Part shown: in pieces, positions 4,485 to 31,218 of the stretch
Layout of the letters: each line of letters opens with the position of its first letter
Position numbering within the stretch: position 1 is the stretch's first letter
Origin: a phage
Length of the DNA: 64,000 nucleotides
Sequence record: OZ335961.1
Reading direction: 5' to 3' (one strand)
Program-made: the position numbers and the translations under genes
Notes under the pieces: model-generated
Databases searched by the model: none
What the model was told of the DNA's origin: nothing
The model's input: only the letters and a program-made list of their open reading frames with translations

Positions 4485-6109
<1,625 letters not shown>

Positions 6110-6110
<1 letters not shown>

Positions 6111-6352
6111 TGGAAGGTTTAATTGAAGCTATTAAATCAAACGACCTCGTAGCCGCTCGTAAATTATTTGCTGAAGCCATGGCTGCAAGAACGATTGATT
6201 TAATTAAAGAAGAAAAAATCGCTATCGCTCGTAATTTCTTAATCGAAGGTGAAGAACCTGAAGACGAGGATGATGACGAAGATGGTGATGATAAAGACGA
6301 CAAAAAAGACAAAGACTCTGACGAAGATGACGAAGACGAGGATGATGAATAA
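6110..6352 (+). CDS. 67: prohead core protein
   Basis: 80-aa ORF with strongly acidic D/E C-terminus; TAATG overlap with gene 20 stop; T4 gene order. Confidence 0.85.
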
Positions 6353-6777
6353 TGCTTCTGATCCCTGAAACTCATGAATTAGTTCTCGAGAATGTCGAAG
6401 CACTTATTCCTGAAGCACAGGGTCGCTTTGACGAATTGTCTTCTGCTTTAAATAAAGACGATATAAATACAATTGTCGAGAATATGCTTGATGATGAAAC
6501 TGATTTAGCAGTTGCATTAGCTTCTATTAATGAAAATATGCCGTTAAATGAATTCATTGTTAAGCACGTTTCAGCTCGTGGCGAAATTACACGTACTAAA
6601 GATCGCAAAACACGCGAACGTAATGCATTTCAAACCACTGGGCTGTCTAAAGCAAAACGTAGACAAATTGCTCGCAAAGCTACCAAAACGAAGATTGCCA
6701 ATCCAGCAGGTCAATCTCGTGCTCAGCGTAAGCGTAAAAAAGCTCTTAAACGCCGTAAAGCATTAGGATTAAGCTAA
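6352..6777 (+). CDS. 68: prohead core protein
   Basis: 141-aa ORF with basic C-terminus; start overlaps gene 67 stop. Confidence 0.85.
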
Positions 6778-8273: not shown

Positions 8274-9839
8274 ATGACTATCAAAACTAAAGCTGAACTT
8301 TTGAACAAATGGAAGCCATTACTGGAAGGTGAAGGTTTACCGGAAATTGCTAATAGCAAACAAGCGATTATCGCTAAAATCTTTGAAAACCAGGAAAAAG
8401 ATTTCCAGACAGCTCCAGAGTACAAAGACGAAAAAATCGCCCAGGCATTTGGTTCTTTCTTAACAGAAGCTGAAATCGGTGGTGACCACGGTTACAACGC
8501 TACTAACATCGCTGCTGGTCAGACTTCTGGCGCAGTAACTCAGATTGGCCCAGCTGTTATGGGTATGGTACGTCGTGCTATTCCTAACCTGATTGCTTTC
8601 GATATTTGCGGTGTTCAGCCGATGAATAGCCCTACTGGCCAAGTATTCGCACTGCGTGCAGTATATGGTAAAGACCCAATCGCTTCCGGCGCTAAAGAAG
8701 CATTCCACCCAATGTATGGTCCAGATGCAATGTTCTCTGGTCAGGGTGCTGCTAAGAAATTCGCTGCTTTGAAAGCAAGTGATACTCTTGAAGTTGGAAC
8801 TATTTACACCCACTTCTTCCAGGACACTGGTACTGTGTATCTGCAAGCTACAGAAGTTAAGCAAATTGATACTAGTGCAACTGACGCAGCTAAATTAGAT
8901 GCTGAAATTAAGAAACAAATGGAAGCTGGTGTACTGGTAGAAATCGCTGAAGGCATGGCTACTTCTATCGCTGAACTTCAGGAAGGTTTCAACGGTTCTA
9001 CCGATAACCCATGGAATGAAATGGGCTTCCGTATCGATAAACAAGTTATCGAAGCTAAATCTCGTCAGCTGAAAGCTGCTTACTCTATCGAATTAGCACA
9101 AGACCTCCGCGCTGTTCACGGTATGGATGCTGATGCTGAACTGTCTGGTATTCTGGCTACCGAAATCATGCTGGAAATCAACCGCGAAGTTGTTGATTGG
9201 ATTAACTACTCTGCACAGGTTGGTAAATCTGGTATGACCCTGACTCCGGGTTCTAAAGCTGGTGTATTTGACTTCCAGGATCCAATTGATATTCGTGGTG
9301 CTCGCTGGGCGGGTGAATCCTTTAAAGCTCTGTTATTCCAGATTGACAAAGAAGCAGTTGAAATTGCTCGTCAGACCGGTCGTGGTGAAGGTAACTTCAT
9401 TATCGCTTCCCGTAACGTAGTTAACGTTCTGGCTTCAGTTGATACTGGCATTTCTTATGCTGCACAGGGTCTGGCTACCGGCTTTAACACTGATACTACC
9501 AAGTCAGTATTTGCTGGTGTTCTGGGTGGTAAATACCGTGTATATATCGACCAGTATGCTAAACAGGATTATTTCACTGTAGGTTATAAAGGTCCGAACG
9601 AAATGGATGCTGGTATTTACTATGCTCCATATGTAGCTCTGACTCCGCTGCGTGGTTCCGATCCGAAGAACTTCCAACCAGTAATGGGATTCAAAACTCG
9701 TTACGGTATCGGTATCAACCCATTTGCAGAATCCGCTGCTCAGGCTCCGGCTTCTCGCATCCAGAGCGGTATGCCTTCTATTCTGAATAGCCTTGGTAAA
9801 AACGCTTACTTCCGCCGTGTATATGTTAAAGGTATCTAA
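8274..9839 (+). CDS. 23: major capsid protein
   Basis: 521-aa ORF, high-expression codon bias, TATAAATA late promoter at 8133-8140, strong terminator downstream. Confidence 0.95.
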   Translation: MTIKTKAELLNKWKPLLEGEGLPEIANSKQAIIAKIFENQEKDFQTAPEYKDEKIAQAFGSFLTEAEIGGDHGYNATNIAAGQTSGAVTQIGPAVMGMVRRAIPNLIAFDICGVQPMNSPTGQVFALRAVYGKDPIASGAKEAFHPMYGPDAMFSGQGAAKKFAALKASDTLEVGTIYTHFFQDTGTVYLQATEVKQIDTSATDAAKLDAEIKKQMEAGVLVEIAEGMATSIAELQEGFNGSTDNPWNEMGFRIDKQVIEAKSRQLKAAYSIELAQDLRAVHGMDADAELSGILATEIMLEINREVVDWINYSAQVGKSGMTLTPGSKAGVFDFQDPIDIRGARWAGESFKALLFQIDKEAVEIARQTGRGEGNFIIASRNVVNVLASVDTGISYAAQGLATGFNTDTTKSVFAGVLGGKYRVYIDQYAKQDYFTVGYKGPNEMDAGIYYAPYVALTPLRGSDPKNFQPVMGFKTRYGIGINPFAESAAQAPASRIQSGMPSILNSLGKNAYFRRVYVKGI

Positions 9840-24021: not shown

Positions 24022-24986
24022 TGTATTCTTTAGAGGAATTTAATAATCAAGCAATAAACGCAGATTTCCAACGTAATAATATGTTTAGCTGCGTTTTTGC
24101 GACAACTCCATCAACTAAAAGCTCTTCGTTGATAAGTTCAATTAGCAACTTTTCTTATAATAATTTGGGTCTAAATTCAGATTGGTTAGGATTGACTCAA
24201 GGCGATATTAATCAGGGAATTACCACGCTAATTACTGCTGGCACACAAAAACTGATAAGAAAATCAGGGGTTAGTAAATATCTTATTGGTGCCATGAGTC
24301 AACGTACAGTTCAAAGTTTATTGGGCTCATTTACAGTTGGTACATATTTAATTGACTTCTTTAACATGGCATATAACTCGTCTGGATTGATGATATATTC
24401 TGTAAAAATGCCAGAGAATAGATTATCCTATGAAACTGACTGGAACTATAACTCTCCTAATATTCGTATAACTGGGAGAGAATTAGACCCTTTGGTTATT
24501 TCATTTAGAATGGATTCAGAAGCTTGTAACTATCGTGCAATGCAAGACTGGGTTAACGCTGTTCAAGACCCAGTAACTGGATTGCGTGCTTTGCCACAAG
24601 ATGTCGAGGCAGATATTCAGGTTAATCTTCATGCTCGTAATGGATTACCTCATACTGCGGTGATGTTCACCGGATGCATTCCAGTGTCAGTGAGCGCTCC
24701 TGAGTTATCATATGATGGAGATAACCAAATAACCACATTTGATGTTACTTTTGCGTATAGAGTCATGCAGGCTGGATCGGTTGATAGACAAGCTGCGCTT
24801 GAGTGGCTTGAATCTGCTGCTATAAATGGCATTCAAAGCGTTCTCGGAAATAGTGGGGGTGTTACTGGATTATCTAATTCGCTTTCACGACTTAGTAGAT
24901 TAGGAGGAACTGCTGGAAGCATTTCAAACATTAATACTATGACAGGAATTGTCAACTCGCAAAGTAAAATATTAGGAGCAATATAA
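24021..24986 (+). CDS. 54: baseplate tail-tube initiator
   Basis: 321-aa ORF, TAATG overlap with gene 48. Confidence 0.9.
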   Translation: MYSLEEFNNQAINADFQRNNMFSCVFATTPSTKSSSLISSISNFSYNNLGLNSDWLGLTQGDINQGITTLITAGTQKLIRKSGVSKYLIGAMSQRTVQSLLGSFTVGTYLIDFFNMAYNSSGLMIYSVKMPENRLSYETDWNYNSPNIRITGRELDPLVISFRMDSEACNYRAMQDWVNAVQDPVTGLRALPQDVEADIQVNLHARNGLPHTAVMFTGCIPVSVSAPELSYDGDNQITTFDVTFAYRVMQAGSVDRQAALEWLESAAINGIQSVLGNSGGVTGLSNSLSRLSRLGGTAGSISNINTMTGIVNSQSKILGAI

Positions 24987-24990
24987 CAAT

Positions 24991-25020
24991 GGGGACCGAA
25001 AGGTCCCCATATTTTTATTT
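24991..25020. terminator. bidirectional terminator between gene 54 and the alt-region operon
   Basis: GGGGACC-GAA-AGGTCCCC hairpin followed by a T-rich run. Confidence 0.7.
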
Positions 25021-25305
25021 ACGGAATGAAATAAAAGCAGCAACTGAAGCAACTAAACTGTCTTCAATATAAACTTCAATTTTTACCGGAGCTTCTGACT
25101 CAAATTTACCTGTTACTACACCTTGGAAAATGCTTTCAGTCTGCTCTGGCTTTGAAAAATTTTCAGAAGGAAAAATTCCGAACTTTTTATCTGTTCCAAA
25201 AATTTTGATAAATTCATCATAAACTGCTTCATTAAAAGCGTTATCAGCAGGAATAACGCCTTCAACTACAAGTTCTTGACCTAAAAAGCGTAAAGAAGAT
25301 TTCAT
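25015..25305 (-). CDS. hypothetical protein upstream of the alt locus
   Basis: 96-aa ORF with ATG; early-type promoter plus conserved leader immediately upstream (25335-25366). Confidence 0.55.
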   Translation of the reverse strand: MKSSLRFLGQELVVEGVIPADNAFNEAVYDEFIKIFGTDKKFGIFPSENFSKPEQTESIFQGVVTGKFESEAPVKIEVYIEDSLVASVAAFISFRK

Positions 25306-25334
25306 TTTGTGTTCCTCATGTTATGTCAGTAAGA

Positions 25335-25366
25335 TTATTATAACACAACACGAGGGACTTGTAAAC
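25335..25366 (-). promoter_or_regulatory. early-type sigma70 promoter (GTTTAC -35, TATAAT -10)
   Basis: Minus strand reads GTTTACAagtccctcgtgttgtgTTATAAT; near-identical block at 41306-41337. Confidence 0.5.
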
Positions 25367-27423
25367 TACATCTTGAACTTTTTAGACATTCCGTTGATGT
25401 TAACTAAAGAAGCTAAGATTTGAGAAACTTCGTTTTCCTCTTCTTTTGATTCTTCTACAAGGAATTGATTAAACCCAGCCATTAGACGAACTTCACCAGT
25501 TTCCATTAGATGATCGCCATCATATACCGATTCTTCTAATTGTTCAGAAGGAGGAACGATTGTGCCTTCGATTAGATACTTGTTATAAGCAGTTTCTTTC
25601 ATCATGTACGTGCTCACTTTATTAATCTTCAGCAAAATTCCACGCGGTAAAATAACTTCAGCTTCTGACGGAAATCCTGATAAATGACCCGGAACGATAA
25701 CTTTAATTCGCTCAGCTCCTTTAATTACCATACCCACGCTAGTTTCAGCATCTTCATTAGCATATGCAGAATGACTACCCATATGCATTAAATCTTCAGC
25801 ATCAACAGAACCTTCTCCTTCACCAGAAAATACTGCGCCGGAATCATCTAGAGACATATAGTTTTTACCATGCTCACCGAAGATATTTGGTTTAAGCGAT
25901 GTTGATACGAAGTTCTTAAAATAGAACATTTTATTTTCAATATTATGACGTAAAGTTTTAAAAGTAACTTCTTGCCCACGATAAAGCGTAGTTCCTGGAG
26001 GAAGAACTGATCCTTTGGCGAATGCAGAATCCAGCGTCTCGATGCGTTTAATAGCTCGTTCCATGTATTCTTCACGGGTAGAATCTGGTTTACCTAAGAG
26101 GAACGAGTTCATTTCAACATATGAATCTGCACAATAATCTTCAATTACATCAGACTCAGACTGAGTTAATCCTTTTGGAGTTACTTCGGTGCTTGCGTAT
26201 TCATATGCCTGAGCAGCAGATTCATTAATCAATTTATAAATGTTATTCATGACAAATTGAATAATAGCTACCTTTTCGTCTGGTGTGGCTTTAGAACCTT
26301 TAACTAAATCATTGATAATTTTCTTAATAACATCAAAGCTATTAGAAATATTAATGTCAGCGAGATCGCTTAAAATTTTATCAGTTTTATAATCAAAAAA
26401 TTCTTTATTCTTTAAATATTCTTGAGAACCTTGATATGTTATATCGCTCTGCAGCTTGATAGATGGATCACGTAAACGTGCATGGGCCAATGCAATATGA
26501 TTTCGGAAGCTTTCTAGTTCATAATCGTTAGATTTAAAACGAGAAGCACTTCTCATACCACCGATAGCTCCTTTGCTGAAGTTGGAACCAATCTGAATAA
26601 CACCAGAGTTCATTGGTCCTTCTGCTTTATATACCGGAACTTTAGATTCAAACTCTTGATATTTCTTGGCAGCGAAGCTATCACCCTGAAGTGAAGCATC
26701 GACAGTAGAATATTGAGCTTGTGCTGCTAATCGACGGCTAATTTTAGTTTTCTGAATAACAGCTTGATCCGTGCGCTTATCATTTTCTAAAGCAATAGAA
26801 GCAGCCACAGCAACGGCTTTAGGAACAGCATTACCTGTTTTAACATCTACATAAACATCACCAACCTTTGATTCAACTTTTGTGAATAACTCAGTTGAAA
26901 TAGGAGGTACACCTGGAATGTCTTCTAAATTGGCATTTTTACGGTAAACCATAATATATGCATACTTTTTATCATAATCCCAGATTTCTTTTAAAAGAAC
27001 ATATCGACCTGCTCCTTTAGTACGTACTAAACGGTCAGCAATAACTTGCATTTGACGAGCAGCGCCATTTGTTTTACTTTTTAGTACGCGGAATAGGCAT
27101 GCGTCAATTTTATACTGTTTCATTGTTTGAAGAGCAGTATCAAAAACCGCATTAATGACACCAATTGGATTTCCACCCAAGTTTTTAAGTTTAACTAATG
27201 ATAGTTTCTCATTGACACCTATCATTACGATATGCATCATTTTATCGCCTGGCTTAACGTTTTTATTTGTATCACCGCCAGAGGTGTATGTACAAAATCT
27301 AAATCCAGGAAGTACACTTTCTTCGCCGGCTTGAATAGCAAAAATTTGAGGTATTTTATGCTTAGGATTTAAGTTAACAACCGGCGCCGAAGCGCCGTCA
27401 AATAATTCTGTAATAAGTTCCAT
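25366..27423 (-). CDS. Alt-like mono-ADP-ribosyltransferase (second paralogue)
   Basis: 685-aa ORF starting MELITELFD like its neighbour; C-terminal R / STS / EAE triad (LYRGQ ... FVSTSL ... SEAEVILPRG); AAGGA RBS. Confidence 0.8.
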   Translation of the reverse strand: MELITELFDGASAPVVNLNPKHKIPQIFAIQAGEESVLPGFRFCTYTSGGDTNKNVKPGDKMMHIVMIGVNEKLSLVKLKNLGGNPIGVINAVFDTALQTMKQYKIDACLFRVLKSKTNGAARQMQVIADRLVRTKGAGRYVLLKEIWDYDKKYAYIMVYRKNANLEDIPGVPPISTELFTKVESKVGDVYVDVKTGNAVPKAVAVAASIALENDKRTDQAVIQKTKISRRLAAQAQYSTVDASLQGDSFAAKKYQEFESKVPVYKAEGPMNSGVIQIGSNFSKGAIGGMRSASRFKSNDYELESFRNHIALAHARLRDPSIKLQSDITYQGSQEYLKNKEFFDYKTDKILSDLADINISNSFDVIKKIINDLVKGSKATPDEKVAIIQFVMNNIYKLINESAAQAYEYASTEVTPKGLTQSESDVIEDYCADSYVEMNSFLLGKPDSTREEYMERAIKRIETLDSAFAKGSVLPPGTTLYRGQEVTFKTLRHNIENKMFYFKNFVSTSLKPNIFGEHGKNYMSLDDSGAVFSGEGEGSVDAEDLMHMGSHSAYANEDAETSVGMVIKGAERIKVIVPGHLSGFPSEAEVILPRGILLKINKVSTYMMKETAYNKYLIEGTIVPPSEQLEESVYDGDHLMETGEVRLMAGFNQFLVEESKEEENEVSQILASLVNINGMSKKFKM

Positions 27424-27426
27424 GAT

Positions 27427-29520
27427 TTATCCTTGAACGAACTTGTAAGGCATGTTTGCGATATCTATGCAAGACGCAATAATTCCAAGAGATGATTCTA
27501 CTTTCTGTTTAACATTTGATGAAACGAATGATGCAAAGTCAACTCTGTCTTCTATTTCAATATCACCTGTCATTGCAACTACTTCACCAGTTTCCATTAG
27601 ACGGTCACCGTCATAAATTACTGATTCGGTGAGTTCTTCCGTAGTCATAACTTCAGCTTGAATGAGTTTTGTATTATTAGATGTTGTTCCGTCATTATTA
27701 GAAGCATCAGTTATTTTATTAACTTTGACCATCAATCCGCGCGGTAGAATAACTTCAGCTTCTGTTGCTATTCCGAGACTTCCTGGATATACAACATTAA
27801 CTTTATGAGCTCCATCAATTGCCCATCCTATTTGAACTTTAACGTATTCAGGATTTTCTTTATACGCTCTTATTTCGTTTGGATTAATAGTTATTCCTTC
27901 TTCATTTTTATCAACTGTCAATTCATTACGAGCTTCTGGTTCTAAAAGACCAATACCAGCATGCGTAATTCCAAAACGTCCAAAAATGATAGGAGTTAAA
28001 GAAGTAGATACAAAATTTCTGAAATAGAACACTTTATTTTTAACTAGTGCTTCGTATATAGGAGCAGTCATACTTTGAGCACGATAAACTGTAATGCCTT
28101 CTGGTATACGATCACCATTTTCAAAAGCTGAGTCTAAGTTATTTATAGCAGATTCAATTTCTTTTTCACTCATTACATCATATCGTTCTGGATTGTAGCG
28201 GCCTAAAAGAAGATTATTGATGTCAGTATATCCTGATCCACAGTACTCTCTAATGCCGCGCTTTTGTGATGGAGTATATTTAGAACCATCACGGGCAATA
28301 GTAATATCAATCATTGGACCTGCACCAATTCCAGAAAAGCTATAAATCATTCTTTTGAGGAATTTAGTTTTTGCTGCGTTCCAGGAATTTTTAGTTATTT
28401 CTTCCCAGACTTCATCTGGCTGTCCTTTACGGGTTTTATTATGTTTATCAAGCCAAGTATCTTTATATTCTTCAAAGAATTTATTAATAGCTGCTGCATA
28501 CTTCTCTAAACATTTTATTGAAGTAGTTGGTTCATTTTTAATCGCATTAAGAATTACGTCTTTAATTTTTTCAGAAACTTCATTAACCTCACTTTTTGAA
28601 AAGAATTTATAATCATAGTGAAGTTCATCTGCGGTTCCTTCGGCAATAATTTTTGCTGCCTTAGTTTTAGAAGCTAATGAATTGATTCCAAGTTTCATTT
28701 CTTCTGCTTCGGGAATTAAAGGAGCTGTAGCAGGTTTATTGAAATTAGCTGCGGTAGATTCATACTTTTGGAATAATTCACTTTCAAATCTAGAAGATTC
28801 CAATGACTGGCTTTGTGCAATTGCTCTACGGGAAATTTTAACTTTAACGATTACAGCTTGGTCAGAACGTTTATCATTTTCTTGTGCAATAGATGCCGCA
28901 ATTGCCTCATTTTTAGTTACTTGAGCTCCAGTATCTTTATTGATATAAACATCACCGACCTTCGATTCAACTTTAGTAAAGAGCTCGGTACTAATTTCAG
29001 GAACTCCTGGGATGTCTTCTAATGATACATTTTTGCGATGTATAAGAATATATGCATACTTTTTATCGTAATCCCAGAGTTCCTTAAGAAGGACGTATCT
29101 GCCACCTGAACGACTGCGGATAAGTCTATCAGCAATAACTTGAATTTGTCGAGCTTGACCAGCAGTTTTAGACTTAAGAATACGAAGCATACAGGCATCA
29201 ATTTTATACTGGCGCATCGTCTGCATTGCAACAGTAAAAACTGAATTGATGTAATTAATTGGGCTTGGACCGAGACCTTTTAATTTAGCAATTGAACCTT
29301 TAGCGGTTAATGTAAAAGGAACAATGTGCATCATTTTATCGCCCATCTTTAAATCGCGATTAGTATCACCTCCAGATGTATAGGTACATAAACGAAAGCC
29401 TGGTTGTTCAATTGCGTCATCAACATGAACTGAAAAAATTTGCGGTATTTTCTTCTTTGGATTTAAGTTTGTAATCGGAAGAGTAGTATCTTCGTCAAAT
29501 AATTCTGTAATGAGTTCCAT
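27427..29520 (-). CDS. alt: Alt ADP-ribosyltransferase (head-packaged internal protein)
   Basis: 697/698-aa ORF (MMELITELFD; second ATG better spaced from AGAGGA); R / STS / EAE triad (VYRAQ ... FVSTSL ... TEAEVILPRG); minus-strand TATAAATA upstream. Confidence 0.85.
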   Translation of the reverse strand: MELITELFDEDTTLPITNLNPKKKIPQIFSVHVDDAIEQPGFRLCTYTSGGDTNRDLKMGDKMMHIVPFTLTAKGSIAKLKGLGPSPINYINSVFTVAMQTMRQYKIDACMLRILKSKTAGQARQIQVIADRLIRSRSGGRYVLLKELWDYDKKYAYILIHRKNVSLEDIPGVPEISTELFTKVESKVGDVYINKDTGAQVTKNEAIAASIAQENDKRSDQAVIVKVKISRRAIAQSQSLESSRFESELFQKYESTAANFNKPATAPLIPEAEEMKLGINSLASKTKAAKIIAEGTADELHYDYKFFSKSEVNEVSEKIKDVILNAIKNEPTTSIKCLEKYAAAINKFFEEYKDTWLDKHNKTRKGQPDEVWEEITKNSWNAAKTKFLKRMIYSFSGIGAGPMIDITIARDGSKYTPSQKRGIREYCGSGYTDINNLLLGRYNPERYDVMSEKEIESAINNLDSAFENGDRIPEGITVYRAQSMTAPIYEALVKNKVFYFRNFVSTSLTPIIFGRFGITHAGIGLLEPEARNELTVDKNEEGITINPNEIRAYKENPEYVKVQIGWAIDGAHKVNVVYPGSLGIATEAEVILPRGLMVKVNKITDASNNDGTTSNNTKLIQAEVMTTEELTESVIYDGDRLMETGEVVAMTGDIEIEDRVDFASFVSSNVKQKVESSLGIIASCIDIANMPYKFVQG

Positions 29521-29543
29521 CATATCCTCTCTAGTGTTTATTC

Positions 29544-29551
29544 TATTTATA
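29544..29551 (-). promoter_or_regulatory. late promoter core TATAAATA upstream of alt
   Basis: Minus strand reads TTTTATAAATAGAAT about 20 nt before the alt ATG. Confidence 0.55.
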
Positions 29552-29559
29552 AAATTAAA

Positions 29560-29571
29560 GGCCCGAAGGCC
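29560..29571 (-). terminator. hairpin between the gene 30 operon and alt
   Basis: GGCC-CGAA-GGCC hairpin in an A/T-rich context. Confidence 0.45.
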
Positions 29572-29572
29572 T

Positions 29573-29761
29573 TTAATAATCTATTGGTAAGAGAGTACGA
29601 TATATTTCAAACTTTGGACCTTTTTCATAGGTATCAAATGTTTCCGTGAATTTATTATAAGCATATGCATCTATAAATTCAATCATAATTTGTGATACAG
29701 AAGTAGAAACATCTCCACCTTCTTTTTGAGCCACGACAATTGTTTCTAAGTAAGCTTTCAT
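29573..29761 (-). CDS. hypothetical small protein between gene 30 and alt
   Basis: 62-aa ORF, ATG overlaps gene 30 stop; hairpin follows its stop. Confidence 0.4.
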   Translation of the reverse strand: MKAYLETIVVAQKEGGDVSTSVSQIMIEFIDAYAYNKFTETFDTYEKGPKFEIYRTLLPIDY

Positions 29762-31218
29762 AGACCAGTTACCTCATGAAAATCACCAAATACATCCTCG
29801 AATGTATTAGCTTTAGTTTTATCTTCACGTAAACGAATCGCAATCGGAAGAAATAATTTAACGTAATCAGTGCGGCCATCAGATTTTAACCAACCATTAC
29901 ATTCGCATTCTAGAATTTTTCCAATATAATAATTTTGGTTTTCCATAATGCGAGTACGGTCAAGTTCATGCGATTTTACGCCGGCTTTATCTTTTAAGCC
30001 TGAACCAGCATTTACTTTAATTTTTCCACACTCTGATTCAAGAATAAATCCACCTGCTTTAGTAGGGTCTTTACGGTGAGGATAAATTCCTACAATTTTT
30101 AAATCAACATCAATTACTTCTTTAAATTTATAGAGATTTTTTGAACGAGCATTTTCCCATAATCCATCGATATTTTTGAGAATAATACCTTCAAGACCTT
30201 GGTCAATATACTTTTTATAAATTACCTTAGCTTCATCTAGGTTATTTACTACCTGGTTTTCAATTAAAATTACTTTATCATATCCTGATGTCATTTGTTC
30301 TAGTTTAGAAAAACGTGCATCATATTTTAAACGAAACGCCGGAAGACCGTATATTTCTACCAACGGGACATAATCCCAGACCTGAAACTTCATGCATTTG
30401 GCTTCTTTTTCAGAAATGGTTCCTTTTAAGGATTTATTGGCGATTCCATTAGAAGCAGTACGTGATTCAGCTACTTCGGCGAATTCTTTAGCTTTACTGA
30501 TTTCAGGAGCATCAAAAAGAAAATCTAGGCCTTCTGGCTCCTTTTCAACTTGCTCGTGGTATACCAATTCGCCATCGATTAACACACCTTCTGGATGAAT
30601 CTGGCGGGCTTCAGCAGTCATTTTGATTAATTCTTCCTTAAGAAGATCTAATCCTAGATATTCATTACCAGCTCGTGATAAAAGACGAACATCATCTAAT
30701 TCATCGCCTCGGACTTCAGCAAAACACCGAGCTCCATCAGCTTTTAACTGTGCAAAAGCTGGAAACTTGATATTCTTACTAATGCCTTTTTCATCATAAG
30801 AACTTGCCAGCATTTGAGGTTGTTCAGGAATTAAACCTGGCCAAACTTTGTTTGCAATAGATACTGAAGCACCGCATTCAAGGTCTCGCATCATAACTCG
30901 ACGCAAAACTTCAACATCATCCTTTTTACCATCGGTGATATATCCAGTTAATTCCTCAATTGCAGCATTTCCAGTCAATTTCCGAGTAGCTAACGTGAAT
31001 TCAATGAAGTCAAGCATATCGGTAATAGTCAGCATTCCAAAACTCTGGGTAGCAATACCAGGTTTAGGCCATTTCTTGATATAATACTGTAGCCCACGAG
31101 AATAAGTCAGACGATATACTCGTTTAAGCAATTCATTATCTTTATTCTTTTCAAGAATTGCTTGCTTCTGCTTAGTTGATCCAATAGATGCTATTTCATT
31201 CAGAATTTTAAGAATCAT
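29758..31218 (-). CDS. 30: ATP-dependent DNA ligase
   Basis: 486-aa ORF with adenylation motif KADG (AQLKADGARCF). Confidence 0.93.
   Translation of the reverse strand: MILKILNEIASIGSTKQKQAILEKNKDNELLKRVYRLTYSRGLQYYIKKWPKPGIATQSFGMLTITDMLDFIEFTLATRKLTGNAAIEELTGYITDGKKDDVEVLRRVMMRDLECGASVSIANKVWPGLIPEQPQMLASSYDEKGISKNIKFPAFAQLKADGARCFAEVRGDELDDVRLLSRAGNEYLGLDLLKEELIKMTAEARQIHPEGVLIDGELVYHEQVEKEPEGLDFLFDAPEISKAKEFAEVAESRTASNGIANKSLKGTISEKEAKCMKFQVWDYVPLVEIYGLPAFRLKYDARFSKLEQMTSGYDKVILIENQVVNNLDEAKVIYKKYIDQGLEGIILKNIDGLWENARSKNLYKFKEVIDVDLKIVGIYPHRKDPTKAGGFILESECGKIKVNAGSGLKDKAGVKSHELDRTRIMENQNYYIGKILECECNGWLKSDGRTDYVKLFLPIAIRLREDKTKANTFEDVFGDFHEVTGL

Follow-up and report, generated by a model that had tools for sequence, protein, structure and literature searches.

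The Two-Gene alt Locus of a T4-Type Phage: Paralogous Alt-Family ADP-Ribosyltransferase Genes and the T4 Remnant of the Second

Organization of the alt Locus

The stretch of phage DNA analyzed here (sequence record OZ335961.1, 64,000 nucleotides [nt]; hereafter the window, to which all positions refer unless stated otherwise) encodes two large Alt-family proteins, called AltA and AltB below, next to each other on the minus strand. The region is the alt locus of a T4-type phage: it is flanked by the baseplate genes 48 and 54 (plus strand), alt.-3, alt.1, and DNA ligase gene 30, and the position of the two genes between gene 30/alt.1 and alt.-3/gene 54 is in synteny with T4, T2, T6, and JS10. 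An earlier account of the window, made from the letters and open reading frames (ORFs) without database searches (the sequence-only reading), described two large adjacent minus-strand Alt-family genes with a 3-nt spacer and MELITELFD starts, and these are indeed present as ORFs at 27427–29523 and 25366–27423. The main features of the pair are as follows (aa, amino acids; pI, isoelectric point; ART, ADP-ribosyltransferase).

27427–29520, minus strand: AltA, 697 aa (698 aa if the start is the ATG at 29523); positional orthologue of T4 alt
25366–27423, minus strand: AltB, 685 aa; second Alt paralogue, the intact form of the T4 alt.-1/alt.-2 remnant
28801–29520, minus strand: AltA N-terminal module, aa 1–240, pI 9.4; presumed head-targeting, internal-protein part
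26710–27423, minus strand: AltB N-terminal module, aa 1–238, pI 9.5
27640–28389, minus strand: AltA ART domain (PF03496)
25564–26178, minus strand: AltB ART domain (PF03496); the insert separating its STS and ExE motifs is acidic and of low confidence

The AltA stop codon (TAA, 27429–27427) is separated from the AltB start codon (ATG, 27423–27421) by the trinucleotide ATC (27426–27424), and the N-terminal sequence MELITELFD is common to both proteins. Two neighboring ATGs lie at the alt start of this phage (29520–29523), as they do in T4, at 9503–9506 of its locus sequence. Of the two possible lengths of AltA, 697 aa is the likelier, because the second ATG is the annotated alt start in the T4, T2, and T6 records and the spacing to the GAGG ribosome-binding site is also better there.

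Family Membership and Catalytic Residues

AltA and AltB are 41% identical over their full length (BLASTP, E = 2e-158). Identity per 40-column alignment block is 56–75% over the first ~240 aa vs. 18–26% in the center, in agreement with the sequence-only reading, which had described a similar N-terminal region of ~250 aa and differing central regions. Both proteins match the ADPrib_exo_Tox family PF03496 (AltA, 129 bits, E = 1.7e-37; AltB, 74 bits, E = 1.7e-20; cut-off 23.4) and, from end to end, phrog_802 (906 and 847 bits, respectively), and close database cluster relatives of both carry PF26846 (a precomputed assignment) together with PF03496. AlphaFold2 (AF2) models of AltA and AltB have an identical domain order, and each protein has the full-length Alt architecture (N-terminal module, helical center, ART domain, and C-tail) with a C3/VIP2-like ART fold. 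NCBIfam gave no match for either protein, Pfam searches with the N-terminal and central parts alone (E up to 5) returned nothing credible, and a profile of the N-terminal module found no match among PDB sequences.

Both proteins belong to the R-S-E class of ARTs, which is defined by a catalytic Arg, an S-T-S motif, and an E-x-E motif. The motif YRAQ lies at residues 479–482 of AltA and YRGQ at 481–484 of AltB, and FVSTSL and EAEVILPRG are present in both. The catalytic codons are as follows.

AltA, minus strand: R480 (28083–28081), S505-T-S507, E587 (27762–27760), and E589 (27756–27754)
AltB, minus strand: R482 (25980–25978), S507-T-S509, E587 (25665–25663), and E589 (25659–25657)

The E-x-E form of the last motif, as opposed to Q-x-E, is that of arginine-specific ARTs. 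In an alignment of 68 family representatives (at most ~88% mutual identity, pooled from three database searches), the catalytic Arg, the first Ser of S-T-S, both Glu residues of E-x-E, and the L-P-R-G that follows are invariant (68 of 68), and AltA and AltB each have every one of these family-invariant catalytic-site residues. The proposal that R/S-T-S/E-x-E is complete in both copies is therefore sustained on alignment; loss of catalytic residues from one copy, which the sequence-only reading had named as grounds for giving up its claim, has occurred in neither. A homologue search seeded with the Alt protein of Krischvirus JSE gave only two proteins, and a profile search was used in its place. 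In a phmmer search against PDB sequences, R480 and the E-x-E of AltA align with those of CdtA and iota toxin Ia, the matches being weak.

The exchange E577A abolishes ADP-ribosylation by T4 Alt in vivo (PMC11404850). E577 is the second Glu of the T4 motif E-M-E only if the protein is numbered from the first ATG (683 aa), whereas GenBank uses the second (682 aa); its equivalent is E589 in both AltA and AltB. Both genes are under strong purifying selection, with ratios of nonsynonymous to synonymous substitution rates (dN/dS) of 0.053 for AltA and 0.060 for AltB. The layout of a binary AB toxin (two tandem ART-fold domains plus a translocation partner) is not found here: Pfam detected a single ART domain per protein, and the neighborhood is without a B-component gene.

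Transcription and Translation Signals

The signals that bear on the expression of the two genes are listed below.

29544–29551, minus strand: TATAAATA, late promoter motif of the T4 type; the AltA ATG follows 24 nt downstream
29557–29574, minus strand: hairpin AAAGGCC-TTCG-GGCCTTT, overlapping the alt.1 stop codon, with AATTTT next
27430–27434, minus strand: AAGGA, Shine–Dalgarno sequence for AltB, inside the end of AltA

The minus-strand TATAAATA that the sequence-only reading placed upstream of the first copy was found at that site; across the window, the motif occurs 20 times, compared with 8.3 expected. In phage Ge15, the counterpart of the hairpin upstream of AltA is annotated as a terminator; the hairpin is also conserved in T4, where alt is preceded by the same context of hairpin and TATAAATA. 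This putative terminator hairpin shields the alt operon from upstream transcription. At the site of the AltB Shine–Dalgarno sequence, Ge15 has an annotated ribosome-binding site, and translation of AltA and AltB appears to be closely coupled. No terminator-like site was found between AltA and AltB; this, together with the hairpin and TATAAATA upstream and the 3-nt spacer with its internal Shine–Dalgarno sequence, points to one late transcript that would cover both alt genes.

A second exact TATAAATA is located at 28140–28147 (minus strand), within the AltA coding sequence (codons A-I-N-N) and ~720 nt upstream of the AltB start. The match may be fortuitous, or the site may act as a late promoter inside AltA from which AltB is transcribed separately.

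Deletion of Most of AltB in T4

Reference T4 (NC_000866) has one alt gene (682 aa), followed by alt.-1 (61 aa), alt.-2 (67 aa), and alt.-3. In alignment, the alt.-1/alt.-2 DNA follows the first 346 nt of AltB at ~97% identity, then passes to the last 19 nt of AltB and on into alt.-3. The 1,699 base pairs (bp) of AltB that are absent from T4 are bounded by two copies of a 9-bp direct repeat, one of which is kept in T4.

27076–27084, minus strand: CTAAAAAGT, left copy (AltB nt 340–348), left endpoint of the T4 deletion
25377–25385, minus strand: CTAAAAAGT, right copy (AltB nt 2039–2047), right endpoint of the T4 deletion

Repeats at both ends, with a single CTAAAAAGT left in T4, are the signature of deletion between short direct repeats. 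In T4, the stump is divided into alt.-1 and alt.-2 by the further loss of 1 nt within an A-run. This frameshift is common to resequenced T4 and the sewage isolate ACG-C40, which additionally has a GAA to TAA nonsense change at stump codon 6 (JN986846, positions 201–570 of its locus sequence); the stump is thus a decaying pseudogene. The families phrog_23015 and phrog_15247, built from T4 alt.-1 and alt.-2, match AltB residues 1–56 and 62–117, and they score higher against AltB (138 and 131 bits) than against AltA (78 and 70 bits). Two events, a 1,699-bp deletion from one 9-bp repeat to the other and a frameshift, have cost reference T4 most of AltB. The T6 gene is noted in its record as an "apparent insertion in alt.-2; also similar to alt" and the T4 genes in theirs as "an old duplication of the first part of gene alt"; both notes reverse the event, the full-length gene being the older state.

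Distribution Among T4-Type Phages

T2 (LC348380) and T6 (MH550421) have an identical arrangement (697 aa and 685 aa, 3-nt spacer), and their proteins are 98.3–98.9% (AltA) and 97.8–98.0% (AltB) identical to those of the window. A megablast search with 24900–29900 returned 545 phage records, 357 of which cover at least 80% of the query (top identity 97.9%), and in many of the records two genes are labeled "Alt-like RNA polymerase ADP-ribosyltransferase". The AltB 5′ end occurs in 502 records, and intact AltB at ≥80% identity in ~403 phage records, 394 of them at 95–99%. An 80-nt probe for the T4 deletion junction is matched over its full length in 90 records; it replaced a 421-nt T4-remnant probe, which was dropped because 82% of it also matches intact AltB, such that deleted and intact loci could not be separated. 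Among Tequatrovirus records, roughly 80% have intact AltB and 18% have the T4-type deletion.

The sequence-only reading had set the presence of the same two genes in all reference T-even phages as a finding that would count against it. T2, T6, and ~80% of Tequatrovirus do carry the pair, which removes most of the novelty, and T4, with one gene and a remnant, departs from it. The two-gene alt arrangement is the normal T-even state; it is already annotated and is not new.

The tandem pair extends beyond Tequatrovirus: Dhakavirus JS10 has alta and altb (ACL78420 and ACL78419) in the same order and with the same 3-nt spacer. Mosigvirus has a single alt. In Krischvirus JSE, a 274-aa ADP-ribosyltransferase is encoded downstream of alt (5553–6377 of the locus sequence), and phage IME13 has a further Alt-like gene upstream of alt (1–246 of the locus sequence). 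The alt locus seems to be a recurrent site for the addition of ART genes in T4-like genera. The presence of alt.-1/alt.-2 and other alt-adjacent paralogues in T4-like genomes was recorded previously (Nolan et al., 2006; PMC1524935).

Modular Structure and History

The history of the pair was read from region-by-region identities and neighbor-joining trees. For the N-terminal module, the tree follows phage lineage and not paralogue: the A and B copies are 68% identical in this genome and 65% in JS10, compared with 42–46% between genera, and the AltA module is only 42–46% identical to the copies from Dhakavirus and Mosigvirus. Outside this module, in the central, ART, and C-terminal parts, the proteins cluster by paralogue type. 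Across these three parts, respectively, AltA and AltB are 18, 35, and 42% identical; AltB and JS10 altb 44, 57, and 62%; and AltA and JS10 alta 68, 94, and 56%. The duplication accordingly predates the split of Tequatrovirus and Dhakavirus, and within each lineage the N-terminal module has been homogenized or has co-adapted. Recent conversion between the A and B genes was considered and rejected: the N-terminal DNA identity is ~70–72%, and there is no long identical tract past the first 31 nt. The N-terminal pattern is put down to concerted evolution at an earlier time or to co-adaptation with the capsid. In phage Bp7, the ART of the second gene groups with T4-type Alt in the tree.

Within Tequatrovirus, the center and ART domain of AltA (27724–28797, minus strand, aa 243–600) occur as at least two alleles that are ~45% identical. 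At ≥90% identity, the window type is present in 319 records and the T4 type in 173. Between Dhakavirus alta and the effector region of window-type AltA, identity is 81–94%, a sign of exchange across genera; the AltA ART domain is 94% identical to that of alta, compared with 65% for T4 Alt. Effector modules have been exchanged between phage lineages. AltA allele and AltB presence occur in all four combinations, among them window-type AltA with the deletion (Lv5cm) and T4-type AltA with intact AltB (G4498).

Packaging and Proposed Function

The consensus for cleavage by the gp21 protease in T4 is [LI]-x-E. The sequence-only reading had suggested a look for such a site near each N-terminus, and at the motif level there is a match, I-T-E, at residues 4–6 of both AltA and AltB; [LI]xE is present at these residues in 65 of the 68 family representatives. 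Toward the C-terminus, two more [LI]-x-E motifs are conserved (AltB 629–631 and 639–641). The N-terminal modules are basic (pI 9.4–9.5), and the C-tails are acidic. According to a review of the phage head, the T4 prohead core contains ~40 copies of gpAlt, from which the gp21 protease clips a short N-terminal peptide (PMC9958956); Alt is also classed among the head core proteins (PMC11404850). T4 Alt is injected along with the DNA and modifies the RNA polymerase alpha subunit, as well as other host proteins, on arginine.

The locus is the standard T-even two-gene alt locus, and the two paralogous R-S-E mono-ADP-ribosyltransferases that it encodes are likely to be expressed as one late unit, packaged in the head, and injected, each with its own targets. 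By analogy with T4 Alt, both proteins would be made late from one transcription unit (hairpin, TATAAATA, AltA, 3-nt spacer, AltB), would enter the prohead core via the shared N-terminal module, and would be trimmed at the conserved I-T-E at residues 4–6. They would then be ejected with the DNA into the host, where each enzyme would ADP-ribosylate its own set of host proteins on arginine at the very start of infection. The choice of target would be set by the divergent central region together with the ART loops. The sequence-only reading had likewise proposed late co-expression, packaging, and distinct targets, and these proposals fit the conservation of the N-terminal module and of [LI]xE at residues 4–6. 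That the targets of AltA and AltB differ is suggested by their unrelated central helical regions, by the differing insert between STS and ExE, and by the residue three before ExE in the ADP-ribosylating toxin turn-turn (ARTT) loop, which is Phe in AltB and Ile in AltA, at a position that is variable across the family.

Several observations weigh against this interpretation, most of them concerning AltB. The phmmer search against PDB sequences gave no match for AltB, and its PF03496 score is lower than that of AltA (74 vs. 129 bits). The 49-aa AltB insert between STS and ExE is acidic and modeled by AF2 with low confidence; in the AltA model, the insert is structured. Searches of the full-text literature found no experimental report of AltB expression, packaging, cleavage, or activity, and no paper characterizing the second Alt paralogue. 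T4 and 90 related records do without AltB, which makes it dispensable, at least on laboratory hosts. The difference in targets, finally, is drawn from sequence divergence only.

Four other explanations were weighed. It is unlikely that AltB, although made late, is left out of the head and acts in the producing cell on host or phage proteins late in infection. Packaging has been studied for T4 Alt only, and T4 is without AltB, which leaves room for such a role; however, the N-terminal module of AltB is 68% identical to that of AltA/T4 Alt with all family-invariant positions kept, it co-varies with phage lineage as expected of a capsid-interacting part, and its N-terminal [LI]xE motif is conserved.

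A slightly smaller likelihood attaches to AltB being a redundant duplicate that only raises the dose of AltA activity. The architecture, catalytic motifs, and operon are all as for AltA, but identity is only 35% in the ART domain and 18% in the central region. Moreover, the AltB-type effector modules form a clade of their own with Dhakavirus altb, so the two types have long been kept apart, and Phe replaces Ile at the family-variable position three before ExE.

We consider it improbable that AltB is a dead pseudo-enzyme kept as an internal head protein with a structural or DNA-packing role. The lower Pfam score and the disordered acidic insert would fit such a protein, as would the counting of Alt among the head core proteins (PMC11404850); the residues that are invariant at the catalytic site across the family are all present in AltB.

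A recent duplication peculiar to this phage, which the single full-length alt of reference T4 might seem to favor, is refuted by the occurrence of both genes in T2, T6, and ~400 records, by the same pair in Dhakavirus (JS10), by an A/B DNA identity of only ~70% even in the N-terminal part, and by the T4 alt.-1/alt.-2 remnant, which is 97% identical to the AltB ends and marks a repeat-bounded deletion.

Beyond the reading of AltA and AltB as two head-packaged, injected enzymes at a standard T-even locus, we hold a broader proposal to be as likely true as false. It states that T-even phages normally inject two different Alt enzymes, with AltB as a fourth T-even ADP-ribosyltransferase beside Alt, ModA, and ModB that has its own targets and possibly a role in host range or anti-defense, and that the locus is a polymorphic-effector cassette. 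Such a cassette would combine a lineage-locked head-packaging module with effector modules that pass from one phage genus to another and between positions A and B. AltB would have been overlooked because the model phage T4 deleted it.

Significance

The finding is real and the sequence-only reading was sound, but the arrangement is ordinary and already annotated. As a discovery, it carries low weight: hundreds of deposited phage records contain both genes, under the name Alt-like ADP-ribosyltransferase. One useful outcome is a correction to the T4 annotation: alt.-1/alt.-2 are what is left of a complete paralogue, which T2, T6, and most other relatives still have in intact form. Textbooks credit T4 with three ADP-ribosyltransferases, and this count therefore falls short for the T-even phages. 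T4, the model phage, is without an ADP-ribosyltransferase that appears functional and that the majority of its relatives encode and may inject. Furthermore, the effector region of T4 Alt, the one studied biochemically, is a minority allele, and what is known of its targets may not hold for the majority of T-even phages. To this is added the modular makeup of the alt locus, with its exchangeable parts.

Flanking Genes and Further Signals

The neighbors of the alt pair and two further signals are as follows.

29573–29761: alt.1 (Phage_blade), upstream gene at the flank of alt
25015–25305, minus strand: alt.-3 (DUF5498)
25337–25365, minus strand: near-consensus sigma-70/T4-early promoter (TTTACA, 17 nt, TATAAT, TG extension; 11 of 12 matches)
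24989–25010: GC-rich hairpin with a 9-bp stem, between the convergent genes 54 and alt.-3

The near-consensus early promoter begins 1 nt past the AltB stop codon, and alt.-3 is the gene that it would drive. In T4, Alt.-3 proteins with C-terminal extensions lead to phage escape from the CmdTAC defense system (PMC11618068). The hairpin at 24989–25010 has a terminator score on both strands and is kept in T4 and Ge15.

Comparison With Known Systems

The closest characterized counterpart is T4 Alt (NP_049811), with which AltA shares position and promoter context and both window proteins share architecture and catalytic motifs. AltA is 70% identical to T4 Alt overall, with ~100% identity at the N-terminus and 96% in the C-tail vs. 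65% in the ART domain and 31% in the center; it is a different effector allele from T4 Alt. AltB is 42% identical to T4 Alt overall. AltB is recorded under BBC14817 ("hypothetical protein") in T2 and under AXN58232 in T6; the database names differ, and nothing else of substance does. Unlike intact AltB, T4 alt.-1/alt.-2 (NP_049810 and NP_049809) are a pseudogene remnant, identified by alignment as a truncated full-length paralogue. The alta/altb pair of JS10 is similar in tandem order and spacer, and altb groups with AltB, and alta with AltA, outside the N-terminal module. The JS10 pair differs in that its N-terminal modules follow genus rather than paralogue.

The R-S-E toxins C3, VIP2, iota, and Vis are 15–27% identical in sequence and have no counterpart of the N-terminal, central, and C-terminal parts of Alt. 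Their delivery is by secretion or a binary translocon, whereas that of Alt is by ejection from the phage head. ModA and ModB of T4 are proteins of ~200 aa that are expressed early and are not known to be packaged or to have the Alt N-terminal module. They are likewise phage R-S-E ARTs and belong to the same broad clade (Iyer et al., PMC5512222).

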